From: Chara braunii | Taxonomy: Eukaryota; Plantae; Charophyceae | Assembly (NCBI GenBank): GCA_003427395.1 | Contig: BFEA01000009.1 | Coordinates: 5,442,467 to 5,506,466 of the forward strand | Length of the DNA: 64,000 bases | Direction of reading: 5' to 3' | Part shown: piece by piece, positions 4,784 through 48,590 of the stretch | Layout: every line of letters begins with the position of its first letter | Numbering within the stretch: the first letter of the stretch is position 1 | The notes under the pieces: generated by a model | What the model was told of the DNA's origin: nothing | Databases searched by the model: none | What the model saw: only the letters and a program-made list of their open reading frames with translations | Position numbers and translations under genes: made by a program

Positions 4784-7531
4784 CTACTCCTGATCACTCA
4801 TGACCTCCTGCAACTGCCTATACAACTGCGCCCTCACTCCATCACAAGTCTTAGGAACTAGAATTCCACTTCTATCTCTCAACACCCTAGATGACTCCAT
4901 GGTAACCAAACCATTCGCCTCATCCTTGAGGTTCTTGGGGCAATCATCAGATCGATGTTTGCCCTTCTTACAATAGAAGTATTTGCCAACCTTCTTCTGA
5001 AACATCTTGTCACCTTTCTGCGAAGGTACTGCTGACGGGGCTGCATGTCGCTCTGTCACCTGCTCGCATCACCTGCTCGCCGATACGTCCCTCTGGCCCT
5101 GACCCAGTTGCCCAGGATCCCAATGCATCCCGCAGATCTGCAGTAACAGGCATCTCCTGAGGTACAGCCACCTCCTTACATTCCTTCAAACCCCTCCTTC
5201 ACTCAACCTCCAACATGGTCCGACCCACGCTCGCCTGACCCTCCTGCTGTCCCATGACCTCTCCTTGAGTAGTAGGTAGAACTACCTCCACTCCCATTGC
5301 CTCAACTGATGGTCTCTCTTCTGGCATTGCTGGTCTCTGCCCGAGTGTTAGACCAGCTGGCAACCTCCACTCGAACTCTTCGACCTCTGCGCCCTTCTCT
5401 GCTAGCACCCCTTGCGGCTCCAACATCTCTTTGTCTATTAAAGGAATCTCTTCACCTTCTTGCTGGTATGCCCTCTCTTCCTCCTTCTGACACTTGAAGG
5501 TGTCCTCCGTAGGTCGTTCCCTGATTCCGAATCTTTGGACCTCTGTCCAATCCACCACTGTAGTTGGAGCCTGTCGCGTACACTTGGCCTCAAGGTCTTG
5601 TATCCTCTTCTCCCACTCAGCCTCCTTTGTCTGAAAGGAAGGTTGTTGTGCTTGCAAGTAGGCCCTCAGGACGTCATTGACCTTGTTAAGGGTCTGGTTG
5701 ACCTGCCTGATGGCCTCGTTTTCTGCCCAAACTTTCTCCATGTCTGCTCTTACTGCCTCCATCTCTTTGTTTTGCCTTTCCAAACCTTTCTTCAGGTCTT
5801 CGATCTCTCTTTCCCATTCCACCCTCTGGTCATATGCTTTTTGAGCCACCTTGATCAATCTCTCTCCAACCTTCTGATTTGAAGCTCTGGCTGCTGCGAA
5901 GTCTTCCTTCATCATGCCCCTCAGATTGAGTAAGTCTGTGGAGACCAACTTGACTCCCATCTCCTGGTGATGCCTTCCAGATCTCCCTGCAGCATCCATC
6001 AGCTTGTCAAAGCTGACCCAGACCCCTGAAAATAGGGGAAGGTCCTCCTCCTGAGTGCAAGCGCCCTGTCCACTCTTGCCATCCACCTGCTCAGGCTCTT
6101 TCCCCTGCCGCATCCTCTCGTGCAGCTCAGCAAGGTTCTTTATCCTGAGCTGGACCTTGATTTCCTGATCCCTTGCCGACCTCTCTTTCCTGTCCAATTC
6201 CTTCTCTTGGGCAGACTGCTCTTCCCTCTGATCCTGCCCATGTGGCTCATGAGGCATGCCTGGCTCTATGCATGGCATAGGACAATCCACTTCCATCTGA
6301 GCAGGCTGTGGAGGCACCTCTGGACCACCTGACCCTCGTGCTCTCTCGTGTCTATGGGATCTGTGCTCCTTCTTCCTGTCCTCCCTCAACGGAAAAAATT
6401 TCTAGAATTAAATAATCATTCTGTAGTAAAATTACAATCTAAATTTTAAATTTTCATTCCGTCTTTAAAAATATCATTCGAATTTTTAAAATTTTTCATC
6501 TTACTTGCAAACTTTCATTCCAAGATTCGGGTACCCCTCTTATTTGGACTACATGCTAGAGATGGAATGAAAGTGTGGATGAGTTCATGAAATATTTTAA
6601 TTGGACTTTCATTCTAAGTAAGGATTTTCAGTCATAAATAGGTTAATCCAATCGAAATTGGAAGATATTTGTTGTAGTAGAATGAAAATTTACTTAAAAC
6701 ATTTCATAAACTTGTCCAGCCTTTCATTCCATCTTGAACAAGTAGATGTTATTGGAAGGGAAAACTCATATTTAGACGGGAATTTATCAAATAAAACTGG
6801 AAATTTTAGAATTGGACGAACATTAGAATGATAATTTATAAATAGGAAGATTTTTTTCTTTTTGGAATTTTTTTCAACTTTTATTTCTCGTGGGAATTTT
6901 TCTGTTGCTCTACGTCCCTGATGACGTGCCTCGTTCAAAGGTTCTCCTCTCCTCTGCCTCTGGATCCCTTCTTCTCTTTTCCAAACTTCCTCTCTCACCT
7001 ACCAGACGTACTGGAGTATAGTAGTTTCACAATAACTTCTTGCAATGTCCCCAACTCATAGCAGGCGCCACAATGGATTTGACGAGCGACCTGATGTGTC
7101 GCTTCACGTACAGGAGGAAGCTTCCTATCCTCTACTCTCCTGAGATGTCGAGCTCATCCGCATACCGGTCGTAGGCCCATAAAAATTCCCCCAGATTAGT
7201 GGAGTCAAATCGAATGGGCTGTCCATCTCTTCCCACTGGCAACGGATGCAAACCCTCCATCTTTCTCTCAAAATCCTGCCAGGTTAGTGACTCCCTGACA
7301 AGGCCGGCAATGGGGTCTCCACTCGCCTGTGCCTCGTACCTCTCTCAACATCCTAGTACCATCCCATCCGAACTCCCGTGCATGCCGTTCGAACTCAATC
7401 TGGAACAGCTCAATGTTCCCTCCCTGGAAAACGGGAGGCCTGTCTTCTCTCCTGATGCCCATCTGCGCCCTCTGTCTGGTCGCCCCCAGAGGGGTTTCCA
7501 CTGGCCCTGCCCCTCCCCTTCCTCTTGGCAT
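4784..7531 (-). pseudogene. Extra ORF downstream of pol in A: two Gag-N-like modules, coiled coil, C-terminal CCHC-type knuckle
   Basis: Fragments PVFQGGNIELFQIEFERHAREFGWD and IRFDSTNLGEFLWAYDRYADEL, a 396-aa E/K/Q/R-rich ORF (5199-6389), and YFYCKKGKHRSDDC. Homologous to 30732-32804. Confidence 0.8.
6387..6907. mobile_element. Non-autonomous TIR DNA transposon (MITE-like), 521 bp, 2-bp TSD CT
   Basis: AT-rich island with ends CAACGGAAAAAATT and AATTTTTCTGTTG, CT on both flanks and internal TTTCATTCC repeats. Removing it plus one CT restores the host reading frame. Confidence 0.85.
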
Positions 7532-7793
7532 AGCTGCCTCAAGCGGTGTCAAGCCTGCACAACAAGGAGGAGACAACCTGGAGCACACAGAGGGTAAGCA
7601 GGTTGGACAACCACAACAGGAGATAGACATAGCCTTCCCACAACTATCCCAACTATCTTCCTACCCACATATGCAGACATACACACATGATTCTAACCAA
7701 AAACTCACAACCTGTCACGCTATTCTACTAAGACACTATCCCACACACTCTACTTATGCCAATACTTCTACATAAAGTACTCAGAGAGTGACT

Positions 7794-9344
7794 CTAACTG
7801 GTACGATCCATGCTCACCTCGTCACGAGCCACAAATTTCTTCAGCCTCGAACCTGATACCCAGTCCTTCCATGTCGTCCCATTCAATTCCTCAATTTGGT
7901 AGGCTCCATGCTCACGACACCTGGTGACCCTGTACGGCCCCAACCACCTCTTGTCCAGCTTCCGTGACCACTGCTTCTCCAGGGATGAATCATACAACAG
8001 CACCACGTCTCCCACCTTGAGGAGTTCTTTCCTTACCCGTGCCATCTTATCCCACCTGAACTTGTCCTTGCTACGGTTGACCGCCACTCTACTTGCTGCT
8101 CCCTCAATTTTGTCCTTTATGGCGCCAATCTGACGTGCTCTCAAATCCAACAGTTCCTCAAAGGTCTGATCAGTCTCAAGGTCTTGCCGCCTCCAGGACT
8201 TTAGGAAGCTCTCAATAGGAAATGTTGCGTGCCTACCATACCATAGCGTGACCGACGCATAGCCGGTGCTTCTCCTAACAGTGATATTGTCCACGAAGAA
8301 AGCGACTCTCAGGAAGTTCGGCCACTGATTGGGTCTACCATCAGTCCACTTGGCGAGAAGATTTGTGATGGTGCTATGACCTCTTTCCACCGGTGCATTA
8401 GCCTGAGGGTGCGCTGCGGTAGTGTACTCGGCGATCACCTCATACCTCTTCAAAAGAGCCTTCACTTCAGCACAAGTGAACTCAGACTCTCTGTCTATCA
8501 CGAACCTGGAGACAAAGGGATAACGCAGGTAGTACTCTTCGATGCATCGGGCCAGTGTCTCACGAGTCTTCGTGCGAATGGCCTGGCCATCCACAAACCC
8601 AGAGAGGTTGTCCCGCGCATCAAAGATGAAGTTGTAGCTCCCTATCCCCAGCGGCATCGCCAACAGGTCCAAGTGCACGACCGCTCCCACCTCACGAACA
8701 TATCTTGGGTGAAGCAGCTCTCTAGCCCTAAGAGAGGACCGCTCCTAGCATGGCATGCAAGACTTACAATAATCATCGATCATCTCCCCCCTGTCATCCA
8801 AATAGTATAACTCGTGTATCTTGAGGTAAGTCGTGTTCGTGCTTCTGTGGCCACCTGCCGTACCATCATGTAGTGCTACCATAACGTAAATCTGACGAGC
8901 GACGCCGCAGACTACTGTCCTGGGAGTCTTCCCTTTGCTTTTCATGAATAGATGGTTGTCCCTTACCAGAAAGCTCGGCCTCATCTTTAGAACCCTTGCG
9001 CAAGCATCTCTTTCCCTCATCTCACACGACAACAGCATTCCGAGTTCAAGGTATACCATCTCATACTCCTCTGCTCGAAACGCTTCCTTGATCTCTCCCT
9101 CGTCAAAATCGTCGTCTTCCCTCTCGTGAATCACATTGTCACCTTCTTCCTGCTCTACCACCTCTTCCTGATCTAGCACCGTATTCCTGACCACCTCTTC
9201 CTGAAGCAGCGCATTTGCTAGCAAATACACCCCACCTATCGTCTTCTCGTGCTGGCCCACCTGCAGCACCCCATCCTCAATCGTGAGCAAGTCCTCATGC
9301 AGTTGGTACTTGCCTGCCAGGGCCGGATCCATCATCCAGTCCAC
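7794..9344 (-). pseudogene. Integrase of A (HHCC finger, DDE core, GPY/F motif)
   Basis: LHDGTAGGH...CKSCMPC; VHLDL...IDRESEF...VERGH; RWLGPYRV. Split by stops and a frameshift. Confidence 0.93.
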
Positions 9345-9347
9345 GCC

Positions 9348-11114
9348 TCACATTCCCCACGAGTCTTCTTCCACATAGGGCTTAAGAACTAAGTCTGACC
9401 GTCCTGCATGTCCCGGAGGCGCAAGCCACACAGGACGCCCTTGAGTAATGTAGCTACCTACGGCCAACGACCAGGAGTTGATGTGGAGTCGCACATCCTC
9501 CTCACTGTCCAAGAACTCGTCGACTGGTGGAGTATCCTCGGTCATTCCTTGACTGTTTTTATCCCAGTCGACTCGACTCAACCCATCGGCTCTATTTTTG
9601 TTCCCAAGAATTCGCTCCAGCTCGAAATCAAACATCCAGATGTACGTCAGCCATCTGGCGATAGTTGGATTTGAAGGAGCGAAGTTCTTGAGAGACCCGG
9701 CTAGAGCGGTTGGGTCCACCCTCAATACAAACCTGTTGTCAAAGAGGTAGTTCTTGAAAATCCTCAAACAGTGGAGAACTGCCAAGGTCTCGCGCTTGAA
9801 CTGAGAGTAGTTCCTCTCCAATGTGTTGAGCGTCCGACTCTCAAACCTCAATGGTCGTTCTTCTCCGTTGGGATCTCGTTGAATCAACACTCCTCCCAGC
9901 GCAGTTGGCCCTGCATCTGTCTCTACGACGAAAGGTCCGGTCATTACTGCCGCATGATCCGGTACTCCCAATACTAGACCTCCTTCCTCGAACTCCTTTT
10001 TCAGACCTTCTATCACCGACTCTTGCTTATCTCCCCATTCCCAGTCTTGACCTTGACGCACAAGCTTTCGCAGTTGCTCAGTCTTCGCCGCAAACCCTTT
10101 TATGAAAATCCTTCCAAATCCACACGTTCCCAGAAAACTCCTCACCTCTGTGATAGTCTGGAACGGTGTTGGCCATTCGAGAATCTTGTTAGCCTTCTTA
10201 GTATCTGGTCGACCACTCCTCTCGTCGCACACAAATCCTAATATTGTAGCACCGCTCATGAAGTGCCTTGACTTCGACCCACTGGCAGTGAGGTTATGCT
10301 CCTTTAGTAGGTCCAGGACCTTGCACAAGTCTTGTACATGGTCCCAGACGAAGCGCCTGATTCCTGGCATCACCTCCCGCTCATCCTTCTCCTTAGGCCC
10401 CTTCACGGCCAGGTCATCAATGTAGGGCTGCGTGATGTGAGGACTTATGGGCTGCATGATCCTCACCATGTGCCTCTGAACCATGGCGACCGCATTCATC
10501 CATCCTTGAGGTGAGACGTTCATGTGAATCAACCCCCGAGGTGTATGCATAGCCGTCATTGGTCTGTCTGATGGGTACACAGGGAATTGATCATAACCTG
10601 AATATAAGTCAATGAGTGATATAATGACTCTCCCAGCGCATGCCTCTGAAACCACATCAGCGTTAGGGAGACCACATGCGTCCCTCACCGTTACAGCGTT
10701 CAAGCGCTGCAAATCCTGTACCCACCTCAAAGTCCCATTGGGTTTGACAATGCAAAACCAGGGGGATGCATACGGTCCACTCGAGTAGTCTGCCACATGA
10801 GTGCGGATCTTCCCATCGAGGTAGTTAACTACCTTCTCTTCATCGACTGGATTAGGATATCGCGCACCTCGTGAATTCCATGGTTCGTGAGGTACAGTGT
10901 GTATCCTAATCATTGGGATTATATCCACGTCCAATCGTCCTCTCTCATCGTTACTGAAGGCATATGCAGCATGCCTTCCTCTTATGGTTTCCACCACAAG
11001 CTTCTCTTCCTGCGCCATAAGGAAGCCAAACTCCCCTATGATCGTCGTTTTTTCTGTCTCAGGATTGATACGGCATGGCCTATTCTCCGCGTTCTCTCGC
11101 ATCTGCCGTATCAA
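9348..11114 (-). pseudogene. Reverse transcriptase and RNase H of A
   Basis: LIDLYSGYDQF, PQGWMN, YIDDL; VETDAG, RFESRTL, NRADGLSR. Confidence 0.95.
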
Positions 11115-11185
11115 CTCTCATTCTCGCTCATAGTATACTTCTTGCTCTTCGGTGACGAGTACGGGAACAGGGCGGCACTTCTGAT

Positions 11186-12022
11186 CTACCCTTTTGTACC
11201 GCATGTGTGCACCTTGCTTGAGCCCACCTCTAAAAAAGGCCGAGTTGCGCTTTGGGGTTGTGCTCCACTTGCTCCACCTGTCTTTCCAGACGTTTGATAT
11301 ACCAGCTCCATTTCTCCGGAGCCCATCTTCTCTACCACTTTCTCTCTCAAGGTTTCAACAGCCTTTGGATCAACCATCCCATAGGTCGATACTATATCCA
11401 TAGCATCACCTATGTTTGCCAAGCTCAATGCTAGTGCCTCCGGCTCTCTTCTCTCCTCATACTTGCTGGCTTCAATCCTTAATCTTTCCTCTTCTGACTC
11501 CGCTATAGTGAAAGAACCAGGGTTGGGCTGGTTCCTTATGCTTCTAGGCCCTGTGTTCTTGCAAGTTATGACCTCATAGTTCCTGCATACCGGATCGCAC
11601 AGAACGAGGAACATAGTTTCGTCATGCTTGTTGAGTATGACGGCCTCCGTCCGACTTAGGAACGACCTACCCAATAGAATAGGATGGTCAAGATCAGGCA
11701 TTACGAAGAAACAACTTCTCACTTTCACTTTCCCAATCTCTAAAGTTACCGATGATGAGGTCCCTATGAACACTGATCGACTGTTTGCCCCCATCAGGAC
11801 CCCATTGTCTGAGCGGTCAATCTCCATCCCTAGGCGCAAAGCATGCTCCTCTTTTATAAGGTTCATCTCTGCGTCACTGTCCACCATTGCCGTACATGTC
11901 TTCCCTTTCACTACTACATCTAGGCACCCACATGCAACGAACTTACAATCCATCTTAGTTCCGGTCTCAGCCCATTCAGCTTCCTTAGGGATTATAGTCC
12001 CTAATTGCACGCCGGCCACCAT
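11186..12022 (-). pseudogene. Aspartic protease region of A
   Basis: AMVDSDAEMNLI (degenerate D-S/T-G-A) and ILLGRSFL. Homologous to MVDTGAKMN in B. Confidence 0.88.
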
Positions 12023-12900
12023 CTTCCTGGATAAACGTGCTCTGAGCCTTGCCCCCCTTGAGCCAAATTCTTCGCTTTTCCCTGGGCCTTTGTCAACTTC
12101 AAAGGCTCAGGCTCCTCTTCCTCCTTTTCTTCCTCTGCTTGCACTACCGCTTTCTTCGCTTTGCCCACGGTCTGTGGTGCTGCCATAGTCTTTCTTGCTG
12201 CCTTTGCCTCTTTCTCTGCATCAAGTTGGGCAACAACCTCCTCTATCAGTTTCTTAAAGTCTCGCCCGTCACTCGTCGTGGCGTCCAAGGCCTTCCTTTT
12301 CTTCCTAGCCTGTCGCATTTGGAAGATATCCACTTGATCCAGTTCCCCATCTATCACGCCCTCTTTTATGGCAGCCCAAGTCAACTTCTTCCCCGGCACA
12401 GCCTTCTTGGTTAGCGCGGAGGCCTCCCAATTCTTGAAGTGCCCCAGGAAGGTTGCACACTATTCCTCTTTGGCTAATCCTGGGACCTTCCTTGCCATCT
12501 TCTCGAATGCCGTAGTGAAAGCCCCCACAGTGGAAAACTCATCGCGCCGTAACATTTCTAGGTCTGTTTTTGTTAGCAGACCATCCCCTAGCTTAAAACG
12601 CCTATGCATTTCCCCCTTGAACTTGGCCCAATCTCCCCCTGCTCCAGCAACCACCTTCATTACCTCGGGCCGGGTTTCTCACCAGACGTATCTGGGTAGG
12701 ATTTGGAACTTGTTTGCATCCGACACCTCGCCTGTAACCTGTTCCAACAACTCTAGCCATTTGGACACCCTTTCCTCTTCAAACCAGAAGATGTCAACCT
12801 TCGGTACCTGTAGTCGTGCTAGCTCTCTCTTCTCAATGGCCTTCACAAAGTCTTCTGGCATAGCTGCCGGGCCCCGCTCAATTCCATCTGCGTCCGACAT
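12001..12900 (-). pseudogene. gag of A (fragmented; knuckle region deleted)
   Basis: MSDADG...ERVSKWLELLEQV...YVW aligns with B gag (ERVSHRLELLEQV...YVWW). Starts about 320 bp after the PBS. Confidence 0.85.
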
Positions 12901-13216
12901 CTTTACCTCCCTTGGCCAACTAACCAATTAGAAAGGGAGGGTAGCCCACCAGACAGCTTGTCAAGTTCTAGGGGACTTGTCCTAAATCCTATCTAGCCGT
13001 TCCACCTCTATGTTTAGTCAGTCATTCTACTCTTAGTTACTCAAAGACTTAAATACAACCTTCAATCGCACTTCTGAACACTTAGTCTTGTTATTATATC
13101 CTACACAATCCTCTTATATAAAACACTCCAAACCGTAAGCTTTTGTCGTTTTGCCTAGATCATCAGCCTGCACTTAACCTGGGTTCGTTCTCTTAAGGAC
13201 CCCGGTAGGCAGCCGA

Positions 13217-13236
13217 GATCCCCGGCAACGACGCCA
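13217..13236 (-). promoter_or_regulatory. Primer binding site complementary to the 3' end of tRNA-Asp
   Basis: Minus strand TGGCGTCGTTGCCGGGGATC, 2 nt after the LTR end. One mismatch to the plant tRNA-Asp (Athila-type) PBS TGGCGCCGTTGCCGGGGA. Confidence 0.9.
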
Positions 13237-13238
13237 CC

Positions 13239-16200
13239 TGTCGAGCGCATCGGTCCCGCACGGGGACCCTCCTGGCCGCGTCACGCAGGATTATGCAGGA
13301 CTTGTCGCAGAGAGCGTTTGCCGCTCCGGCCGAGTGCGCCAGCCGTACCTCTCGCGGCCCCCTACGACAGGACAAGATCACGCGAGGCATCGCTTACCTC
13401 CACCTGGGAGTTGTCACCATCCCTTAGGTGGGCGTATCTCTGCCGAGCTACTGAACCACATGTGAAAGCTTTTCGTATGCAATTGCAGAGGTGGCCCAGC
13501 CGAGGGTGTTTCCCGTTCGCTGTAGCATAGGGGGTTACGCATGGTCGAACGCCCAAAATTCGAGCCCGTACGCGAATTGACGTTCTGGGGGGCTGAGGTC
13601 CCAAACACGACTCGGCGCCGGTCGACTAGGACGCATCGCACACACTACACATACACCACAACACGCACATCTACCCACATATAACTTACGGAGATACACA
13701 AAACAACACACGACGCCACAACACCACAATACTCCTAGTCCCCTCAGTATCCGATCCATAACTTTATGCTGCGAAACTCAGATAGGCATTGCGCGCTGGA
13801 TTTCCGTATAAGTATTGAGCGAGCGCATGACCTCCTCATATCAACCAGCCATGCGGGCATACGCAAGCACTCGCGCTGATGGGGTACTATGTGGTACTCA
13901 TAACCTCGCGGCCCTTGGTAATCTCGAGGGTCGCGTTCGACACTCGAGTGTCGGCTGACAGACGCTTTGAGGGGTAATCTCTCGACGTCAGACAACCGCC
14001 ATGTGCGGTTGAAGACCACACTCTCTTCTGCACCCTGTGTAGAGGGGTTGAGTAGACAACTTTAAGTTGCCGTGACGCTAAAATATCAAGGGGTTTGACT
14101 TTGACGGCTGCCACAGACTACAACGTCCAACCATGAAAATTCGAAAGAGGAACTTATCCCAACTCGTACGGTTTGGTGGCCTCCTAAAATAAAGGGGGTA
14201 GGCGGACGCAAACAAAGCGCGCGCGGAGGAGACCCAAAAATCAGACCCATAGGCTACCCGATGTCCGGGATAATGAAGACCCGTACACGGACTCCCATAG
14301 GTCGACTGAGATTGGTAGTTCGCTCATGCGTCGCTTCGCGATACTGAAAAACCCGAATCTATTAGTCATAACGCGCATTGGTTCTCGCCGCCCGACCCAT
14401 AACTTTAGTGCGAGAATCGGTAAGTGTTGCGCGTGCGGATTTAGTATAAGATCGCGCGGAAGCAGGACCTACACATACCAATTTATCATGCAGATCTACG
14501 CGAGTGTCCGCGATTGACGGCGCATTATGTGGTGCCCATACCCAAATGGCCTCTTCTGAGCCCTGGGGTTGTCTCCGATGCTCTAGCGTTGGCTGAAGTG
14601 CGCGCTAAGGGGGGTAAGCCTTTAGCGGGCGCAAAATCGGCCTGAGGGCCTTACCATCTTCTGCACCCTAAGGTGTCCCGAAGGGCGCGAGGTGAGATGG
14701 TCCCTAGGGCAGGAAGGAATTCAGAGCGGTGGTAAGTTGTCTGGCGCACCACCAGCGACACGCCAACCCTTCCGCCTGGAACTTTATCGTTCCACCAAAA
14801 TAAACCCCAACAAGGATGAAAAATGAATACTATTGACATTATCAAAAGAAACGCCGTCAGGGCTAGGCCTAGGCCCTGGGCCGTCCTGGATGAGGACCTT
14901 GAATTCCAGGCTTGGAAATAACATCCTACCATCTGGTCGGCATTGAATAAGAAAAACGTGGGCGTGCGGTCCCATAGCCCTGTGAGGGTTACCCGAGCGT
15001 ACACATACGTAGATTATCACATTATCTGAACAGGAAAGGAACAATCTCACTCAAACGAGAGGGTGTGGGGTAGTTCACTCTCACGACAGTTATGTGGTTT
15101 TGCCCATCTGAATCCTTAGCAATATCACTCAACATGAATCGATCGAGACTCTTCCACACATACCTGCAATCACATCACAAAATCAAGCAAAGATCCACGC
15201 ACTACACGGAGTCAACTCCAACCACTCTCTATACTCNAAAGATCCACGCACTACACGGAGTCAACTCCAACCACTCTCTATACTCATACCCTTTGTTTTA
15301 GCCATGCAAGCCCCAACCTCCNGCCAACCAACCATAATTAAATACTCAGTACTTTTGTTTAATGACCATTCAATAAAAGTCCGGGTGAAATCATAACAAA
15401 ACAATAAAAATCACCAGGGCTAAATCCTGTTTCGGTTGAGTATTGAGAGTGAATTAGGGTTGAGTCGTAAACTGACGGATCAACAACCGACCTGTCATCA
15501 GTGATAACAGCAGGGTAATCCTTTTGTAGGAATAGCCTGATCAGATCAAGCCTTCAAGCGAAACACGAAAACCTGCATCACAGTACAGGCCAAAGGAGAG
15601 TACTACTTATGTTTCTGCCAGAGGAGAATACTCCCCAAGTCATAGCCCAGTTCCTCTACTAACCTTAGGGCCAGCTCGCCTTGCTAGTTCTAGGTCACTG
15701 AGTATCTCCTCTAATCAGGATAGGCCTGCCAAGTAGTCCTTAACTGAAATATATTCTAACTCCCCAAATTCTACGAAATTTCGGCAACGCTTCGCGCAGG
15801 AAAAGTGCCTTCTCATAATTTTTATGAGCTCAAAATGACTAACTCTTTTCATATTTGTAGAAATTTCGACAGCGCTTTCCGTAGGAACAGGGGATTGTCA
15901 AGATTTATACAGAGCTGAAAAGATAGAAAGGACAAAACGACTATACTTGGGAGTAACTTCTGACACCTGCTCGACGATCGAGGATCAATGGCAGTCCGCA
16001 CAACTTCTAGATGAGGTTGTGAGCTAGCCTTGATCCCAACTCTTAGAAGGGCCAGCCCTATCTTCATCCCAAGTTCTCCCTCCCATCATCCATTTGATCT
16101 ACCTATGGCTCCGACACTTGGCGAGCGTCTAAGCAACCAACCTATCGAAAAAACGCCCCAACATGAGAGCCCACAGGCATACATAAACATACATCGCTCA

Positions 16201-19200
16201 CAGTCCCACATCATTTTGCCCAAGTAGTTCGTTAGATCATTCAGTTCTTTCCCTTAGTAAACCCCCTCACTTATGGCATAGGATTAGACAAGGCCCTAAC
16301 TTAAGGGTATGCCCAACCTCCCNTTCGTTAGATCATTCAGTTCTTTCCCTTAGTAAACCCCCTCACTTATGGCATAGGATTAGACAAGGCCCTAACTTAA
16401 GGGTATGCCCAACCTCCCTATGTAAACAAGTAAAGCACGCACAACTTGACTGCCCTAACTTAAGGGTATGCCCAACACTAGATAAACTCTAGTCATAAAA
16501 CATATGACCAGACCGCCCTAACTTAAGGGTACGCCTGACTTCTGCTTGAACTGACGACATGAAGCATAAACTAGACTGCCCTAACTTAAGGGTATGCGTA
16601 GTTAGCTCATAGACAAATTTACGTAGGGCATAGGATTTGGCTGCCCCAACTTAGGGGTGTGCCTAACCTGCCTAAAACAAGTACGAACGACGAATGGTTA
16701 GACCGCCCTAACTTAAGGGTACGTCCAACCTACATATCATCAACGACAAGAGCATATCACTAGGCGGCCCTAACTTAAGGGTACGCCTAGCTAGCTTAAA
16801 CAGTTTAGGTACATAAGACAGAGTCTGCCTGAACAAGGTACAAACGACGTATGACTAAGCCGCCCTAACTTAAGGGTATGCTTAGCCTCCGTAACGACAA
16901 TATAAGAGAATGACCATTGATACATTTGCACAAACTTTATATTTTTCTCTCTTATTAGGCAGAGGATCAGACCTACCCAACTTAGGGAGACATTCAACCC
17001 TGCCTTGTGTTTAGAAGGGAAAATAAAACAAATTTATAACATTCAACCCTGCCTTGTGTTTAGAAGGGAAAATAAAACAAATTTATACTAACTCTCTGCT
17101 CCTTTGCATTATCACGAGCATAGAACTGAACCGCCCTAACTTAAGGGTACGCTCAGCTTGCCCTGGTTACCTTCATTATATTCTTCATTTGCCTTTCTCT
17201 TTACTTTCTTTTACCTGACTTATTGACTGGCTTTCCCAACTTAGGGTGCCCGGCCTGCCAGAATATAAGTTCATATAATATATATCAAATCTCTATATTT
17301 TGGTTGTTTTTTTTATTTATGGCTTATGACTGAGCTGCCCTAACTTAAGGGTATGCTCAGCCTCATGCCTGTGTCCCCCTCAGAAGAAAACATACACAGA
17401 CCTGGGTCTATGCAACTTAGAATAATCCCAGTCTTGTTTTCAGCAACCCACAAAAGAAACATCAGGATTCTGAGCCTTCCAATCTTAGGGCGCCCATCCT
17501 CCTCTTTAGAAACCCTAGAAAAAAACAGCGACTGGTCTGTCCAACTTAGGATAGACCCAACCCTCAAGATCATACCGTCAGCCCAGCAAACATAAATAAA
17601 CACAACACTGAGCCGACATTAACTTAGAGGAGTCCATCCTTGGGTTGGCCCAGTCAAACACATGCAAACACCTTCATCCTACTTTCCCCCAGCTCATTTT
17701 GCCCGAGTTCACTCAAATTTTATCTGAGCTCTCATATGTACATGTTCATTTAACCTTTCACAATACATGTCCTGACATACCTAGCAAAACAGAAGTAATA
17801 TCCTTACATAGTTGTATTTAGATACCTAGGGGATAACAGTTAGGGGAAGGGATCACACGCGTCAAACGAGATTATACATGACGTTTCCTACCTCCAGAAC
17901 TCCGCCTGGGCTCCGGCAGAGCTCCCGCAATCGGTGGGGCAACCTCCCACAGAGGCCTTGGCGCGGTCCTACGGGTTTCAATCCTGCATGTCGCCTTCCT
18001 CCCGTAACCTTAGACTAGACTTAGAATGAGAAGGATAGAAGTAGAAGATTCAGGCTCTCGAGATCCAAGGGAGGGACAACTCAACTCACAGTGAGAGGGC
18101 CTCGGAATTTGAACTTTCTTGAGGGCCCCGCAACGGCGGTCAAAAGAACGCAGCAGAAGACGACCAGAACCATGACCGGAACCCTATGCACCAGTCCCCT
18201 GGCAGACCTCCAAATCACAGCAATGGACCCTCCTTTTCTGAGCTGGATCCTTCCTTCAAAATCACCACTCTCCCCTCTGACCGTACTGCCATCACGCAGT
18301 CTGAAAATACTACGTTCGAATAGAGCACACCCCCGTGCTCTATCCTGACTCGGGGCGCACGCTAGAATTACACAGCCCTGGGCCAAACAGCAGTGTGCAT
18401 AGCAGATGAGCGCAGCAGCAACCCAGTGCAGCAATGCTCAGTCATCAGTTCCAGAAAACCCAGCACCCGTGCGCAGAGAGAGGCCGCTGTGGCAACCCAA
18501 CTAACCACGCTAAAACAAGGAATGCAGATCGTAGCCCCCCCCCAAAAAAAAATACCGGCGGTGTCCAGTTGTAGCAGAAATTTCGGCGTCTCGAAAACTC
18601 CGTTCTTAACGCTGCGTTATGCAGATCATAGTAACGCCGCAATATACACAGCAAGTGCAAGAGCAGAGTACAGTAGTCACACTCAAGTAGTCGCACCCAG
18701 CTGCAGGCTCAACAACTTAATATGGCACTGCATTGCGTAGCAGCAGTCCTGTCAATGTTGACTCTGGCGCCAAATCCTGTGTTCCCTCCTTGTACGGTGC
18801 CATGTGCCTGACCAACGATCTTTCAGTCACCCTCCTACTATGTATAGTATTGAGGCACTGCCGTTGTCCGTGGCAGCACGCCACCCCAACAATAGGTAAT
18901 AGCAAGGGTACAGTAGCTCGGGTCGGCAGTAGGGAACAAACCAGCGAGCAACTGCAACTTCGCTTTGTAGTGAGAGTGCAACCATGCTTGGCAGCTAACA
19001 CAGTCAGGCCACCTTACCATTGCTCCCTCTTCATTTGTACAACAGTCTCTTTGAGAACCAACAGATTGCTACCATTTAGTAATACAACGTCTTTCTGTTC
19101 AGAAGAGCGGAAAGATACAGCCTACCGTTAGTAGCGGGAATAACCGGTAGGTGTTTTAGCTGTAGCAGTCCGCAGCAGCTGCAGTGGCCTATAGTAGTGA

Positions 19201-22200
19201 CCTGAACAGCAGCGACCACAACCACTCCTTGAAATAGAGAAGCGGTACTTTACTTAAGAGAGCAGCAGCCGGATCCTAGCGAAAAAGTGACACAGCCCCT
19301 GACAACAGCCTTTTCAGGTGTTGTCTCACGCAGTCAGATAACCCAATTAGTAGTAATCCCTCGAACAACCCCCCCTTACGAGAGTCTCCAAGCCAAAGTA
19401 GCTGCCATATTTCTTGAGACAGTGATGACAGCTCATTCGAACGTCAGTGAGGGATTTATTTTCAGAGCACCGGCAGCCAGCCGTGATACCCAGGCTGTGC
19501 TTCAAAGGTACAAGCCGCACTTGGCTGTAGTCGCGGTGGCACTCAGATACATGGTAAAGGCACTATTGTCCTCTTCGCATAGTCGGCATAGTCTCCCCTT
19601 TACCAGCCCCTCTCTCTTATTCGCTGTCATTAACACATGAATGTTCCTGGCTGCTAATACGGCCAGGTTCGATCGGACACTCAGGTCTCCTGTTGAAGAT
19701 TTTGGTCCAAATAAAACTACACTGATGATTACAACTGTCTGGAAAAACGAACCCTGCCCCCCCCAAAAAAAGGGAAGAAAAAAAGGAAGAGAAAAAAAAC
19801 AAAAACGAACCCCCACTTAATGATGGCGTCAGTCAGAGTAATCTTGCTCAGCATGGCTTTCTCAAAATAGGTGATGCCAAGGCAGCACAAGCTCAAGTAG
19901 CACGGCTACCTCCCGTTCGATTTGAGGATGAACTCTCCACTGAAAGAGAGATCAGGCACTTTCTTCCACCGGAGGCAAACACGGCAAAGAGCAATAGGGC
20001 CTTGATACCAACCTTGATGGGCACGATGGCGATGAAGTCGTCATGACTAAGGCAAGCACTCCATTGGCCACGCCCGTGATTGACAAAAAATAGGCCGCTC
20101 TTCCCATCGAGTATCAACAAAAATCACAACTAACAACTTCGAAGTGTGTACGGTGGTGGCCTGGCGAATGCCATGATCACTAGGCTGGCTGCCACCATGA
20201 GCATTACCCAGTCAGATGCAGTCAGGACCGCTGCCAGCTATACAGGCTAAATCACGATTCGTTCTTACAACCCATGAGAATGAATCTCCCCCTAAAACAC
20301 GGGAAGATACCTTCAAAAACAACTTTAGTCATGGGCGCAGCTCCCGCTGCTCACACTTCCCAAACTATGCACCTAGTGCGGAATCCACCACAGCCATTCA
20401 CTTTATAATGTTCCAAAACCTCCAGTTAGCATTTTACCCCGTTCGATTCCGTGGAGGAATGTGCGAGATATTAGTTTTTCAGTTTCACTGGTCCTCTTCT
20501 CATCCTCCTCGACTTCTCCACGCACCAACTTCTCTCCGTTACTCCTATTCTACCAACCCATACGCCAGACTAAGCCCACCACTCACTCCGTCTGACCCAA
20601 AAACTACTACTTTACACCTCTCCCGACATAATCTCACCAAGAATCGAGCATGCTGTAACTTGTCACGCCCGCCATAGTCTTTTTTCACCATTTCCTTTGC
20701 TGAATGTATCTGGCACAAATCAGCTCCATCTTCATTCCCTTTCTTTCCTGCCCTTGCTACCCTCGTGCTTCCTGTCTTTCTCTTCCCCCCTCAGCCTTTG
20801 AATGCCCCTGGCCATCAGGTAAGTATCCACTCCCCGCAAGACTACACACACGGAGATGAAGATGTCATCCTTCAAACTAAAAACCCCACCTGACTCGCCT
20901 TGCCTCAAAACCTCAAGTTAGCACCTTCCCCTGCCAAATTTCATTAAGAAATAGGCACGCTGTAACCTTTCACTCTTCCATATCTCCTAGCTCCGACGTT
21001 GTTTCTGAACTTTTCTCCCTCCTCCTTCGAATGCACCTGGCGCGAAACTGCGTCCAGGTTCATTCCCCCCTTTTTTTGTATCTGCTGCTTCCCTTCTCGT
21101 GGTGTTGCGCTCTCTTGCACTATCCCCCTCCCTTCTAATCCTTTCTCCCTCTCCTCCCTACTGCCATTCCCCCAGTAGTCCACGCTGCCTTCCCTTCTCC
21201 GACGGCACTCACAATTAGCAAGCAAAAAGAGACGATCCTCTTTATTTATACGGGCCAGCCTTGTGCAGGGGCAGGCTGTATTGTTCCAATTCTAACGGAT
21301 GTCTCGAAGGACTGTAGCACGGTAGCGGTATCTCAGCAGTTCGTGGATGTATCCACCGAACTAGGCTTGCTGGTTTCACGGCCGATGTTGAGACCGGTAC
21401 CGGACCACGCCTCTCAATGGACTTTCAAAGTAAAAAATAAAAAAATAAAAAATAAAAAATAAATTAAAAATCTAGGAAGAGTTATGAGACAGTGGACTAG
21501 GGGAGGAAGGTCGTTGGTGCTTGGTCCTCGGTCCCCCCTCCCGAGCCCGTGGTCACAACCCCCCGCAAAAAGCCAAGGGAGATAGTCCCACGGGACCCTC
21601 AACCCCTCGGCTCACTCCAGTGCGCTCCTCCGCTGCTCCACTGCTCGCGGCTGGCCTCGATCACAGGATCCACATGGTGAAAGTCCAATACTGTACCCTA
21701 TAGGGCTAAGCCCAAGCTTGGACAGGCTAGGCGCTTCCCTATATGTGAACGGTTCGGCCCGCCAGCCTAGGCCTATAGCATCACCCTTAAGGCTGTTGCT
21801 GCTAACTTCCCCGCTCAAGCCCACAGTTTTGTAGGCGTGTCTCAACGTTCTCACACGCAGGCTTCCACTCGGCCTGCCATGCACGCGGCCTCGTAGTATT
21901 ATTGCCAACAAGCTGGGGCTTACCCCACGCTGCTTCTTTCTTGGAAAGCCGCTTTTCTGCCATCTCTACGCCGGGAAGCCCCAACCTCTACTATGATCCG
22001 CGCCACCCTTACTAAGCTCTTGGCGGCGCTGCCTGCTACCGGCGGTGCATGGTCATCCTGGTGCCTGCGAAATTCCTCCCAGTGCGACCTCGAAACGCGA
22101 GTCCCCAGTAGACAACATCCTCCTCCAGTCACCACCTTACCTGGTCAACGCAACGCTGCCCGTAACTTTGCCCGTGTGTGCGAGGTAGCGACCGCCTCAG

Positions 22201-22409
22201 AGACTCTAGTTTACTCTTACTTGTTCTACTGGCATCACGTGTCTCCCTCGACCCGGGCTCGGTCAGGCTAGCTCATGCCCACAAAGTGCACGCTGACACA
22301 CCCTCTAATCAACACAAATGGGACGCGCCCCTTGATATCATCAGAAGCGGTCTTCCTGTAATCTGCAAAAATGCGCCCAAATACCCTTGTAAGGGTGTTC
22401 GGGCCGACA
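13239..22409 (-). repeat. 5' LTR of element A, 9171 bp
   Basis: Termini TGTCG...CGACA, abutting the PBS. The right part repeats 1-2862. Conserved blocks are colinear with solo LTR 45087-52975. Confidence 0.9.
16275..17630. repeat. Array of about 13 hairpins, core GCCCT-AACTTA-AGGGT
   Basis: Loops at 16298, 16457, 16520, 16583, 16648, 16710, 16772, 16867, 16979, 17138, 17238, 17342 and 17543. The copy at 16394 is an N-flanked duplicate. Confidence 0.92.
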
Positions 22410-22929
22410 ACATATGCCCGAACTTACCTTATGGAGGAAAAATTTGGGTATTGTGAAAAACTAAAGGAGGAAGTACGCACGGGAATCTGCGTGGATGGTA
22501 TTCCCGCCATGTTATGCTTGGTCTATAACTTCTGGTCTGGGGATTGGTAACGGTAAGTGAAATTGAAGAAGAAGAGAGAGAGTTTGTATTCCAAGAATGA
22601 TAGGAAATAATGTTGAGATGATAGGAAAGCATGAGGGACAAAGAGGGGAAGATGAGGAAGCTGAAGGAATACATTTACCTGCCTAAGTTGTCAGGGGTGG
22701 AAGGAGTAATTAATGAGTAACTGAGAGGAAATAAGGGTATGACATAAAGAGATAGGAAACCTTATGCTAAAAACGTTCATGTCTCGAGTAGGATTAAGAA
22801 AGAGAATAGAAAATTATTAACTATAATGGAAAGGATATGTTGCTACCAAATAGGACTTATGCATAAGTATTGTGTTTTTTTTTTTGTCTCTTCCTTTTGC
22901 ACCACTCTGGCCACCGGAGATCGCCCAAA

Positions 22930-23706
22930 ATGTCGTACGCCAATCAGGGATTTGGGGTTGAGCTACCTGTTCATACTCGACAAGGGTTGAAAATGTCATT
23001 ACCTCGAGGCCTAAGTGAACGGGAAGAAGAAATCACCGCATGGTGGGGCACCTCGATCCGGCCTGAAGCGTTTATATGGGCAGAAATTGGGCACACCCCA
23101 GATAGAGAAAGTATAATAGTACGAGCAACCTTGTATCTTTCGTCGCATCTATGGAGGATGCATGGGGTAGACCTGGCAATAGGACATAGTCAACCCCTAT
23201 CACGATACATCTTAATTGCCGGGAAAGTCCTTGAGGACAAAATCAGAAGGACAAGATGGGGGGAATTCCGACCAGTCATACCAATGATAGAAGCGAAGTG
23301 GACATCAGATTTTGTGTATCTCACCGACTATATAGTAGTCACTCTTCCGGACTTCATCATTCATGAAGTTTTCAAAGGACACGTGAACGTGGAACAAACA
23401 ACTTTGGCAACCCTAGCGGCTCCTCGGAGAGGATGTGAATTTTCCAAGCCTTAGACCCTTTATTGCCTATATTTGGAGATGGGACCAGAGTTGGTTAATA
23501 CGGACTTCGAGAAAATCCTATCCACGGTAAATGCTTATCTCCGTGTCCATTTCATGGAGCTAAGGCAAACGTATTGGGAAAGACTAAAGGCGGAGCTAAG
23601 AATCAAGGCATGCGTTGACGGTATACCTATAATGTTTGGGATGGTGTATAACTCATGGACGGGAGATTGGATGTCCGCCGAAGAGATTGGAAGGGTAGAG
23701 TGGTAA
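22930..23706 (+). pseudogene. Unknown ORF (about 258 codons) upstream of gag in B, one internal stop
   Basis: ORFs 22870-23454 and 23473-23706 are in the same frame, separated by a single TAG. ATG at 22930. Composition looks globular. Confidence 0.6.
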
Positions 23707-30550: not shown

Positions 30551-30731
30551 ATGAGACAGTGGGTGAGTTAAAACTTGAAACTAAGATAAAACAACTTGAT
30601 CCCCTTAAAACACCTTGTGCTAGCATCATGGCGAATCTGACATTGTTACCCAGTTGCTAACACCGTTTTGCGCCTGCCAACCTCTTTTTCTTTTTCTGTG
30701 TGCAGGCACAATCCTGAAAAAAAAAGCGGCA

Positions 30732-44500: not shown

Positions 44501-46859
44501 TGACTGTCGATGTCCGACCAAAATGTGTGGAGAGCGATCTTTCTTCCACTTTGACAAATGTTCATGCACATTCATCTTTTGCTGCCATGATCCAACCGAA
44601 TGTGCCGAACACATTAATTAGAAAGTTTATTGGATCTCATAATCGACGGAGAAGATTATTATTGAGGAAACCGATTCGTTCAAGGCGCAATAGACAGTAC
44701 CGTATATTGTTGATTCGACGACTGCGTGCGAATAAAGTCGTGCGTCATTTGAAACTTGGATCGTTGTAGTCGATGCCTCACCGTGTGTCATCGGGTTGTG
44801 ACGCAAGTGCAATAGTTGTTGAAAGTACTATAGAGGCTGGTGAAGTAACGAAACAAGTCAATAGAATGAATGTGATTAAATCGTGTTCTACGTCTCGTAT
44901 AATTTCAAAACGAAGGAAAAACCAGAAAAGACGACCAAACTTTCATGTTAAACGTATGCGTGCATTCAGAGTTGCACTTAAGAATCATAGGAGGAAAGAA
45001 GATATGCCTGATCATAAAGATTTTGTACGATGTGTGAGGCGAGGTTTGTTCGCTGTGAATATCCTTCGAGAGATTCGAGCGAGCGCTATCGAGCGCATCG
45101 GTCCGGCACCGCACAAGGGCAGCGCGAGACCCTACTGGCCGCATCGCGCAGGAGTTGGTTCTTAATCCTCGTCGCGAATCTACATGGAGCTTCCGCAAGT
45201 CGCTCCTGCAGAGTGCGCCAGCCATACCTCTCGCAAGCCCCTACAAAAGGGTAGGGCCTACGTGAGGCATAACTCACCTCCACCTTACGGGAGCTGTCAC
45301 CTCCCTTCGGTGGGCGTATCCCCGCCGAGCTACCAGTCCACAGTACGAAAGCTGATCAGTTAAAATCGCAGAGGTGGACCAGCCGATGGCGTTTCTCGTT
45401 CGCTGTAGCATAGGGGGTACGCGCGGTAATACGCCTAATATCGGACCCGCACGCGAACCGTCAACTGGGGATGGCTTAATTTTCAAGCGCGGCCCGTCGT
45501 CACGGTCGGTCGACTAGGGCGCATCCCACACACCACGCGCACACCACTTTACGAACACAAAAATAAAACACACACACACACACACACACAACGAACAACG
45601 TGACAACGCTCCTAGTCCCTTCAGTAGCAATCCCATAACTTTCCGATGCGGAAATCGGATAGGCGTCGCGCGCGGGACATGGTATAAAACCGCTCAGACG
45701 CAGGGCTAGTTCATACTGATTCGCAATGCAAGCGTACGCAAGCAGTCGCAATGATGGAGTACTATGTAGTGTCCATAATCAAGAGGTCCCTCGTGGATCC
45801 GAGTACCGCTTATGACACCCAAGTGTCAGACTCGAAGTGTCGTGAGGGTCTAGTCCCTCACGACATTGCACGACTGAAGGAATAGTCGTGCAGTCGCTGC
45901 GAGACCTCCGGCCTTTGGTCTGAGCGTCTCGGTAGGCAAGGCAAATAGGCTCTGCACGGGGGCAGATTCCTTCCCTGCAGAGTTTAGGGCTTGGAATGTC
46001 CTGGACAAGGACCTTGAATCCTGGCCGAGGACCAACATCCGACTATAAAAATCTCTAAAAAGCAAAGGATAAAAAAAGGATCACCCTTTTCTCTCAAACC
46101 CATAATCTGTTTAACCCTTACGCACGGTCAAGTAGGCCGCACGAAACACTCGAGACATATATATACACATATATATAGAGGGTTATTAATATAGGACGAT
46201 CACTTCTAACAGTCATAGTGGGACTCCTCTGAGCCATATATATATGTATGTGAGCGCAGACAGTCAAATCCCAAGTCCAAATCACCAAGCATACCTGCAA
46301 TCACATCAAAGATTCAACCAGAAAGTCCAAGCACTACACGGGGTTAACTTCAACCATTCTATATACTCATACCCCTGGCTTTAGCCATACAAACCTCACT
46401 CTTGTGCAACTCCCCAAAATAAATACTCAGTACTTTTGTTAAATGGTCATTCAATAAAGTTCGGGTGAAAACATAATGAAACAATTGAAACCACAGGGCT
46501 AAAGCCTTTAGGTTGAGTAACAAGAGTGGATTGAAGTTTAATCGTAAACCGGCGAATTGACAACCGACATGTTATCAGTGGTAACAGAAGATGATCCTCA
46601 GGGGATCGAGCTGAATCTAGTCCTGAACTTGAATCAAACGATCAAAAGGACATGTAACACATGACATGTCAATGCCCCAGGGTAAACCTATAAGTCAATG
46701 GAGAACAATCTCCATATCATGATCTTACCCAAATTATTCTAGTTAACTATATTTAAGCCTACCTCTAAGCAAGTGCCCAAAGAAAGGTAGACTCGTGGCA
46801 AAATCTCCCCTATTTAGAGTGGACTACCAGAATCGTCACCGATCAAAATATAATTTATC

Positions 46860-47430
46860 TCCTTTAAACTAAGAAAATTTCGGCAACGCTTCCTGTAGGA
46901 AAAGTATCTTTGCAGAATTTATATAAGTCCAAATATGAAAGCATAAATAATTTTAAACTCTGGAAAGACAAATTTTGTCTAACTCCCTGAATTAGTAAAA
47001 ATTTGGGCAGCACTCCTTTTAGAAAGGGAGACTTCCCAGACTTATACTAGGTCAGATATGGACTCAAAAAACAACTTGAGTTCAACTTAGACAAGATTTA
47101 ACTAACTCATTAGTTTTGCAGTAATTTCGGCAGTACTCCCTTTAGAAAAATGTTTTTCCAAAATTTATACAAGGCTAAGTCCAGAATTCGATAATAACTT
47201 TGACTTCTCAAAGTCCAATTTTGTCAAACTCCCTTAATTAGCAAAAATTTGGGCAGCACTCCCTTTTGAAAATGAGACTTTCCAGATTTTTACTAGGTCA
47301 GATATAAAGAAAAGACAAGTTGAACTTTGACAAGTCAAAAATTGACTAACTTCTTGAATTTGTAGAAATTTCGGCAGCGCTTCTCGTAGAGAAAGTAGCT
47401 TGCCAAGATTCATACAAAGCCAAGTACAAA
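46860..47430. repeat. Tandem repeat, unit about 120-125 bp, 5 copies with alternating similarity
   Basis: Recurrent AATTT(C/G)GGCA(G/A)C...(T)TATAC. Two related copies at about 15760-15920 in LTR A. Confidence 0.8.
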
Positions 47431-47699
47431 AAATGATCCCAGAAAATACAAGAATTGAGCTAAGTAAAAAAAAACTATCATAGAAAATGCAGGAATTGAA
47501 ACTAACTCCTATCGCTCTAGCATATGGCGAGCAACTAAAGTAACTACCTATCAAGCTAAAACTCAGACCAAGTAGTAGCCTCACTCAGCCACATGCAGGC
47601 CAAACCACAAGGTAAGTACTCTCACCATCCCAAGTTTATCTGGACAAACAATAGTTCGTAATCTTTCAATATTTTAACTTTTTTTCCCCAGCTTACATA

Positions 47700-48590
47700 A
47701 GGTCAGGTCACCCAAACTTATGGAATGTGCCTAACTTAGCCGAAAAGTATACACAAAACAGAGGGCACAACTACTTCTCTCTTCTTTGGGCATGTGACTA
47801 GACCATTCTAGTCGCCCTGAACTGTTTTAAATATCCAAGTTATATATATCTGTCTTCCTTTTGTCTTCTAAGGCTGCATATGAGTGAACTAACTTAACTT
47901 CAGTCTGCCCCAGTTTACCAATTTTATTCTTAATTATACTCTTTTCAAGTTGTGATAGGCTATAGTCAGACCACCTAAACTTATAAAACAGTCTGATTAG
48001 CTCGTTTCTTAAATAGAATAATAGTAAAGTATAACAAAGTTATAACCTTCGGGTTCCAACATGTGCGAGGCTTTGAGTCAGACCACCTGAACTTACAGAA
48101 CAGTTTGACTCTCTGCCTAATTTGTTTTCTCTCTGATCCAATATGTGTGTGGCATTGGGTTAGATCACATGAACTTACAGAACAATCAGCCCTTTGTCAG
48201 GTTCGTTCTCTTAGAATAAAAGCAGGAAGAGGCTAAGTCACCTAAACTTATAGAACAGCTTAGACCTCCTCGTTCATAACTTAAATAAACAAAAGGAAAC
48301 CCAAAGTAAACAAGGCGACCAAGGCACCTGAACTTACAGAACGCGCTTGGTCCTTGAAAAGTCAATCACATTCAACATTCCCAAATCAGAGCAGTCAGAC
48401 CACCTAAACTTATAGAACAGCCTGATCCTCCATGCAAAAACCACAGCACTGGATCTCCTCAAACATATGGGGACTTCCCAGCCTCCAGAGCAATCAGATC
48501 CCCTAAACTTATAGAAGGGTCTGACGCTCCACTTAAGTCAAAATAAACATAGCACTGGGTCTCCCAAAACTTATGGGGACCTCCCACCCT
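47700..48590. repeat. Array of about 9-10 hairpins, core CT(A/G)-AACTTA-(T/C)AG
   Basis: Loops at 47715, 47978, 48090, 48172, 48245, 48331, 48407, 48506 and 48568; variant at 48462. Confidence 0.9.

Follow-up and report, generated by a model that had tools for sequence, protein, structure and literature searches.

A selected and apparently undescribed array of UAAGUU hairpins in the long terminal repeat of a Chara braunii gypsy element

Why would a retrotransposon carry some thirteen versions of one small hairpin inside its long terminal repeat (LTR), with stems that change from unit to unit and a loop that does not? The question is raised by a stretch of 64,000 nucleotides of the Chara braunii genome (contig BFEA01000009.1, positions 5,442,467 to 5,506,466), called here the window, in which a Ty3/gypsy element, element A, lies on the minus strand with the hairpins (array A) in its 5′ LTR. 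As set out below, array A is a real, selected hairpin array, and apparently one that has not been described. The features on which the argument first leans are the following.

16370..17571, minus strand: hairpin array A, 13 units with the loop UAAGUU, each having an outer stem of 7-8 bp, a 3x2 internal loop and a 4-bp inner stem
Loop starts of array A in plus-strand coordinates, first seven: 16394, 16457, 16520, 16583, 16648, 16710, 16772
Loop starts of array A in plus-strand coordinates, last six: 16867, 16979, 17138, 17238, 17342, 17543
16228..16323, no strand: 95-bp exact duplicate ending in N, which contains a 14th unit (16298)
17390..17648, minus strand: two loop hexamers without a proper stem (17414 and 17621), degenerate units flanking unit 17543, covariance model E 0.32 each
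13239..22409, minus strand: 5′ LTR of the Ty3/gypsy element A, 9,171 bp, TGTCGG...CGACA, its outer 2.4 kb repeated at 1-2862 with 92-95% identity
1..2862, minus strand: start of the 3′ LTR of element A, which leaves the window before its array would come
13218..13236, minus strand: sequence TGGCGTCGTTGCCGGGGAT, resembling a primer-binding site (PBS), 2 nt past the LTR end

The loop hexamer, AACTTA on the plus strand, occurs 16 times in 16275-17630, against 0.69 expected. Searched with at most two mismatches, CCCTAACTTAAGGG gave 11 matches in the window, all within 16294-17351, for a chance mean of 0.29; none of 100 shuffles reached 11. All 43 plus-strand AACTTA sites of the window were inspected for stem closure, and at least three Watson-Crick pairs close 14 of the 16 sites of 16275-17630, the exceptions being 17414 and 17621. 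One of the 14, unit 16298, lies inside the 100% identical 95-bp duplication, joined by one N at 16323. Based on this exact N-joined duplicate, and on a similar one at 15237, the unit is probably an assembly artefact, which leaves 13 real units. The duplication at 15237 measures 49 bp, and single Ns are found at three places (15237, 15322 and 16323), two of them at junctions of exact tandem duplications, as is typical of scaffolding overlaps.

The initial annotation of this DNA had described about 13 hairpins, a number that was confirmed; the exact GCCCT/AGGGT-type stem it had given them is not present in all, CCCT/AGGG being the inner stem of 9 of the 13. The outer stems it quoted were all found (CTAGGC/GCCTAG at 16772, CTAAGC/GCTTAG at 16867, CTGAGC/GCTCAG at 17342, AACTA/TAGTT at 16583 and GGTCTGTCC/GGATAGACC at 17543), as was the switch of an inner stem to CCCC/GGGG, at 16648. 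Its spacing of 62-65 bp holds, for seven consecutive loops (six intervals, 16394-16772) and not for six loops; later spacings are 72-159 bp. What had been called a bulge is the 3x2 internal loop if read on the element-sense strand, where it sits above a 4-bp stem. The location in an LTR is also correct, given the minus-strand termini, the adjoining PBS-like sequence and the repeat of the outer 2.4 kb. We take this PBS-like sequence to be of the tRNA-Asp type, and the PBS of the element presumably to be Athila-like.

A second LTR in the window, related to that of element A, carries a similar array.

45087..52975, minus strand: solo LTR B, 7,889 bp, with GCGC on both flanks as a 4-bp target duplication
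47691..48597, minus strand: hairpin array B, 9 units with the UAAGUU loop on stems of the UCUA/UAGG, UCUG/CAGG and UCCA/UGGG types, and 3 further hexamers with weak stems

The two LTRs are 67-78% identical in their main alignable blocks. Array B occupies the position homologous to array A, with 12 AACTTA sites where 0.54 would be expected, 9 of them in good stems, and its first unit aligns with the stemless site 17621 of array A. From the 28 hexamer sites of the two arrays, 22 units (13 from A, 9 from B) were aligned on the element-sense strand; the duplicate 16298 was excluded, as were five sites with weak stems (17414, 17621, 47733, 47891 and 48278). The 22 units share one fold, made of the 7-8 bp outer stem, the 3x2 internal loop, the 4-bp stem and the loop UAAGUU, and RNAalifold recovers the same fold. 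Pairing was found in 84.7% of 262 cells, versus 71.9 +/- 1.5% in shuffles, none of 500 reaching the observed value, and slid registers of the alignment pair in only 17-52% of cells. The covariation score was 0.579 versus 0.340 in shuffles (0 of 500). The loop-closing pair appears in all four Watson-Crick forms (UA 9, AU 6, CG 3, GC 3), and all 21 rows that have letters there are paired.

Because the units are related to one another, neutral evolution was also simulated on unit trees, scaled to the observed stem divergence, at two kappa values. Pairing in array A is 89.6%, versus 64-71% in these simulations (0 of 300 at both kappa values), and in array B 77.8% versus 60-63% (0 and 2 of 300). 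Because the units had been picked by their loop in the first place, the whole window was scanned on the minus strand for the stem geometry, blind to the loop: 12 of 12 matches in the arrays carry TAAGTT, and 9 matches with other loops lie elsewhere. Finally, a covariance model run without filters gave 23 matches with E <1e-5, all in the two LTR arrays of the window, 22 of them the training units and one the duplicate; the next best were the two stemless sites 17414 and 17621.

Selection on structure and loop, as opposed to simple satellite amplification, had been proposed from the letters of array A, and this claim gains from the excess of pairing over simulation, from the single loop returned by the loop-blind scan and from the retention of the loop on different stems in a second LTR family. 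Two results weigh against it: two further measures of covariation do not exceed shuffles (pairs with a double change, 57 of 500; pair types, 329 of 500), and the hexamer is present without a good stem at 2 of 16 sites in array A and 3 of 12 in array B. On balance, we regard selection on the array at the RNA level as likely. A fixed loop on freely covarying stems suggests that the loop is recognised, single-stranded, by an outside partner, and the many copies of the loop suggest that binding would be multivalent. Readings of the units as telomere boxes, branch points, 3′ splice sites or kissing loops were rejected, since such motifs are lost in units that still pair.

Could the same pattern arise if one ancestral hairpin had been amplified in tandem neutrally, covariation being mimicked where template switching repaired the palindromes? 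A set of DNA contigs (X1) was mapped on 2900-19700 at 85% likeness, together with RNA reads that are described below. Joints are seen inside the array in the DNA contigs, as are additional units, of which one has the variant loop AAATTA; this suggests gain and loss of units among genomic copies, although the similarity of the units can mimic joints. Such turnover is what neutral amplification would produce; the units were initially chosen by loop, and gypsy elements often contain tandem arrays to which no function has been assigned (PMC11963269). Simulated neutral evolution nevertheless fails to keep the pairing, and the loop-blind scan finds no other loop in the arrays. The asymmetric internal loop and the G.U pairs have been retained, not repaired. 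Among eight neighbouring units of array A, ungapped identity is 36% in the linkers and 60% in the arms, so that similarity is not uniform along the unit and array A is unlike a plain satellite; Tandem Repeats Finder gives no report of a 63-bp array. We therefore hold the neutral explanation to be quite improbable. The depth of DNA contigs over the array is, as a rough guide only, hundreds of times that of contigs identical to the element A copy, which makes it probable that a major repeat family carries the motif in abundance. A PBS-proximal block of the LTR (12998-14119) has a DNA contig depth about 50 to more than 100 times that of pol, with RNA on both strands, which suggests very many solo LTRs or non-autonomous relatives.

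Which strand would fold? On the minus strand, 19 of 21 rows have C-G or U.G as the fourth inner pair, and the U.G cases would be mismatches on the plus strand, so that a 4-bp stem common to both families exists on the minus strand only. The loop-blind scan gave 12 minus-strand matches in the arrays versus 4 when mirrored on the plus strand. Set against this, the minus strand is the more stable in only 16 of the 22 units, and the 481-nt array core has a folding z of -1.88 for the minus strand, compared with -3.77 for the plus strand. Mismatches on the minus strand are 22 G.U versus 3 A.C in array A, where composition predicts about 1.5 to 1, and 16 versus 8 in array B; this asymmetry was discarded as proof of the strand, since 63-168 of 300 simulations allowing ancestral G.U matched it.

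The RNA reads came from three poly(A) runs of the 24 listed (X5, X6 and X7), of each of which 6-13% was read. X5 and X7 are strongly one-sided, with first mates on the plus strand, which means RNA from the minus, sense strand if the libraries are of the usual stranded type. First-mate depths (plus/minus) over 16364-17485 are 0.45/0 and 0.75/0 in X5, and 0.78/0.17 and 0.88/0 in X7. They rise to 8.4/0 (X5) and 14.7/0.09 (X7) in the bin 17486-18046, the highest sense depth of the mapped stretch. Sense reads in these two runs reach 1.97 over gag2, a second gag-like gene of the element, 0-0.04 over pol and 0-0.18 over 2900-4582; with so little over the last interval, read-through from the interior does not seem to account for the signal in the LTR. 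Several points weaken this evidence. The array itself is covered less than once in X5 and X7. Only 11 of 196 reads (X5) and 27 of 280 (X7) are at least 95% alike, so that the array reads derive from other copies. X6 covers both strands nearly everywhere, the array at 10.2/14.3 and 12.5/13.8, with no bias. Stranded coverage over the array thus amounts to sparse sense reads in two runs and, in the third, reads free of strand bias. The sense loop UAAGUU of the initial annotation is favoured by those two runs and by the 4-bp stem in both families, while the regional folding z prefers the plus strand and the G.U excess is not significant; we conclude, with moderate confidence, that the folded strand is the element-sense strand.

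The peak of sense reads adjoins a conserved block, and the interior of the element contains two coding regions that bear on its possible role.

17876..18137, minus strand: conserved block upstream of array A, putative first exon, 78% identical to LTR B over 259 columns, with a donor-like GT at its end
7794..12900, minus strand: gag-PR-RT-RH-INT (protease, reverse transcriptase, RNase H, integrase), disrupted by stops and frameshifts
4784..7556, minus strand: second gag-like gene of element A (gag2), exon start 7554, ATG 7531, broken

Many reads cease to match at 17883-17887, and their loose ends a few bases on read CAG/GTAA or AAG/GTTTAT in the sense direction (the slash marks the candidate exon end). 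At this break point LTR B has GAG/GTTATT and the element A copy CAT/GTATAA, and the similarity of A and B drops there. The donor-like site is thus AG/GT in LTR B and in the loose ends, and AT/GT in the element A copy; some consensus loose ends have only 48-55% agreement. The two gag2 genes of the window, that of element A and that of a second gypsy element, each have a pyrimidine tract and a TGTGCAG/GC acceptor, 23-26 nt before the ATG. Donor-like and acceptor motifs flank the array. Folding the upstream block from two sequences gave no useful information, a double change being present in 4 of 59 pairs.

The array follows the expressed block with the donor-like end and precedes the PBS; splicing would thus take it out of a gag2 message, whereas genomic RNA would keep it. 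Transcription would start at a point of the LTR that lies upstream of 18137. The first exon would be the block 18137-17876, with its donor spliced to the acceptor before gag2, and the gag2 message would therefore lack the array, the PBS and gag-pol. In unspliced RNA the array would stay, and a CCHC knuckle may read its exposed UAAGUU loops in many copies at once; the copy number of the units may shift by unit-level recombination or template switching. We tentatively predict, as something possible and short of probable, that the array is a multivalent docking site in sense RNA which marks unspliced genomic RNA for the Gag or Gag2 of the element itself, for packaging and possibly for export. The binding by Gag or Gag2 that had been proposed earlier is plausible from the position of the array, the protein partner being putative, whereas the anti-silencing role offered beside it found no support in this analysis. 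A fuller version, in which control in a charophyte Ty3/gypsy lineage resembles that of complex retroviruses, spliced Gag2 binding the 13-fold UAAGUU array in an LTR-encoded leader of about 5 kb and so selecting unspliced RNA for packaging and export, as one case of a widespread undescribed class of arrays, we consider unlikely.

Several observations count against the docking proposal. A leader of about 4.9 kb from the presumed start to the PBS would be unusual. Spliced RNA could itself carry the 3′ copy of the array, if R extends past it. A junction from the donor to gag2 is not among the 15 joints listed, there being 263 further joints. A structural model of Gag2 did not confirm a capsid fold, with a predicted local distance difference test (pLDDT) score of 51 and no Foldseek match.

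The long leader would fit another use of the hairpins, as an aid to reverse transcription, in which loop-loop contacts between RNA and minus-strand DNA help strand transfer across a very long R/U5; the same hairpins do form on both strands. RNA is, however, complementary to its cDNA in any case, with no need for one loop across units and families, and UAAGUU is not self-complementary, which makes kissing of RNA dimers unlikely. Such an aid is in our view very improbable.

The place of the array just downstream of a donor-like site also suits a host partner. An RNA-binding protein or snRNP of the host might bind the hairpins, the array restraining splicing or premature polyadenylation in the leader, or recruiting host export. 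Retroviruses provide parallels in the constitutive transport element (CTE) and the negative regulator of splicing (NRS). That the loop is unchanged between families with LTRs about 67-78% alike is expected of a slowly evolving host partner, and UAAGU of the loop equals what we take to be positions +2 to +6 of the 5′ splice-site consensus. The G that would complete GUAAGU is however present in only 3 of 22 units, where it is stem-paired; units with other closing pairs lack the UUAGGG and YAG motifs, and no candidate protein was identified in this analysis. A host partner seems to us rather unlikely.

Is the docking site proposed here an instance of something already known? In 14500-19500, Rfam gave no match at E up to 1 among 4227 families, and so the comparison with known RNA families, raised together with the original proposal, returned nothing like the array. 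A description of the motif was not found in the literature searched, the Chara genome paper, which may describe the repeat family, being outside that search; nor did the literature searched give a paper on such a packaging signal in plant-lineage LTR retrotransposons. Viral contigs gave no match to the 17-nt core. The sole match to a two-unit pattern, in metagenome contig L001, was rejected as unrelated: it consists of tandem CCCCTAAGTTAGGGG-type palindromes that match model positions 17-37 only, with 16 bits. At 4730-5060 this contig contains several CCCCTAAGTTAGGGG-type palindromes resembling repetitive extragenic palindromic (REP) sequences, in bacterial-looking intergenic DNA.

Signals that present the same loop more than once are familiar in RNA viruses, as with the paired GACG loops of murine leukaemia virus (MLV), the stem-loop 5 (SL5) hexaloops of coronaviruses and the multi-loop signals of alphaviruses. 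Packaging signals in general are described (PMC11499389) as stem-loop elements bound by capsid or nucleocapsid proteins, Psi of human immunodeficiency virus type 1 (HIV-1) among them. By analogy with these retroviral and RNA-virus signals, the stem-loops of array A present a fixed loop downstream of a donor-like site, to what would be a capsid or nucleocapsid partner. Unlike the retroviral signals, array A has about 13 tandem units, a different loop and no Rfam match, and is placed in the LTR, 3.1-4.3 kb upstream of the PBS, not between the PBS and gag.

The closest LTR precedent for array A is that of the palindromes of maize Sireviruses, which are Copia elements. As reported in PMC4728375, these occur as several inverted-repeat copies in the LTR, are capable of forming hairpins and are common to families, in all of which they resemble array A. 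In the same source they lie in the region upstream of the TATA box, and their arms are more conserved than their centre, with no compensatory stems described in the text consulted; array A belongs to a gypsy element and its centre is invariant. This precedent invites a reading of array A as regulatory DNA, an enhancer or anti-silencing target where a protein binds AACTTA/TAAGTT in duplex or extruded DNA. Palindrome arrays are known in LTR cis-regions (PMC4728375), array A is in an LTR with a regular spacing of 62-65 bp, and the hexamer persists at a few stemless sites. Here, though, the centre is fixed while the arms vary in a compensatory manner, which a site in duplex DNA does not need and which reverses the Sirevirus pattern (PMC4728375). 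A telobox-like CCCTAA is lost in units that keep pairing, and the array apparently comes after the transcribed block and is no part of the variable region upstream. A role at the DNA level is, we think, improbable.

Tandem arrays of Tat, Ogre and Retand elements are likewise head-to-tail, variable in copy number and situated in non-coding parts of large non-chromovirus elements (PMC11963269, PMC6317226). They are family-specific in sequence, lie mostly between pol and the 3′ LTR and have no structure described in the text consulted, whereas array A is in the LTR and its structure and loop are kept across families; for the family-specific Retand arrays, the role is called unknown in PMC11963269. 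With regard to the element itself, the 3′ open reading frame (ORF) of ATHILA, env-like, is expressed from a spliced subgenomic RNA (PMC7197481), and element A similarly has a 3′ extra ORF with a splice acceptor. Phygy elements prefer NCGN targets (PMC6317226), as with the 4-bp NCGN-type target GCGC at solo LTR B. Element A differs from both in that its 3′ ORF is gag-like with a CCHC knuckle and that the LTRs are 7.9-9.2 kb long; Phygy elements are short.

The candidate partners were characterised from sequence. No zinc knuckle was found in the gag of the element A copy. Its gag2 has a gag-like N-terminus, a long charged middle and a degenerate CCHC knuckle at 4981, with the first Cys replaced; an AT-rich, internally palindromic, high-copy insert, similar to a miniature inverted-repeat transposable element (MITE), interrupts it at about 6400-6880. 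The second gypsy element also has a gag-like ORF after integrase (about 30705-32804), with an intact C-x2-C-x4-H-x4-C knuckle at 32613, the CCHC knuckle being C-terminal in both. An N-terminal piece of gag2 is 40% identical over 55 aa between the two elements and homologous to five Chara proteins. Pfam gave no gag match for gag2; its language-model features score 0.90-0.92 to retrotransposon gag/DUF7041 clusters with only 111-121 shared features, which is a lead only.

The domain order gag-PR-RT-RH-INT of element A is that of Ty3/gypsy elements. TG...CA LTRs and a PBS after the 5′ LTR were found, and a target-site duplication in solo LTR B (GCGC) only; the other end of element A is outside the window. 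Chara braunii proteins make up 114 of its best 120 reverse transcriptase matches, with identities of up to 88%; the remaining 6 have 33-36%. At 9.2 kb (A) and 7.9 kb (B), the LTRs are well above the range of "up to about 5 kb" stated in a survey of plant elements (PMC6317226). The LTR starts at 22384-22409, 52950-52975, 34655-34680 and 2837-2862 all have TGTCG...CCCTTACAAGGG, a short palindrome situated some 14 nt in from the end. The LTR of the second gypsy element aligns with LTRs A and B over only about 55-80 bp; upstream of its gag is a 195-codon open frame (22867-23454) with no Pfam match, possibly a 5′ extra ORF, and element A is apparently inserted in its leader. LTR A also has a second repeat.

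15740..15925, minus strand: second, longer hairpin repeat, downstream of array A, 2 copies

In LTR B this repeat (46846-47431) has about 5 copies with a period of about 123 bp, downstream of array B, and four copies fold into long hairpins with a small apical loop. Solo LTR B is in or beside a broken Helitron with Rep and PIF1 helicase domains (53826-57359), and an open frame with an NAD(P)H-binding domain (PF13460) at 61822-63096 is probably a host gene exon.

How plant-lineage LTR retrotransposons select their own genomic RNA for packaging is, to our knowledge, largely unknown. Array A offers a compact candidate that lends itself to testing: its 50-nt unit keeps a single fixed loop, compensatory variants with all four closing pairs exist in nature, and the element itself encodes two candidate partners. 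If the predicted docking role is true, part of a very long LTR would gain a function, as would tandem arrays of gypsy elements.

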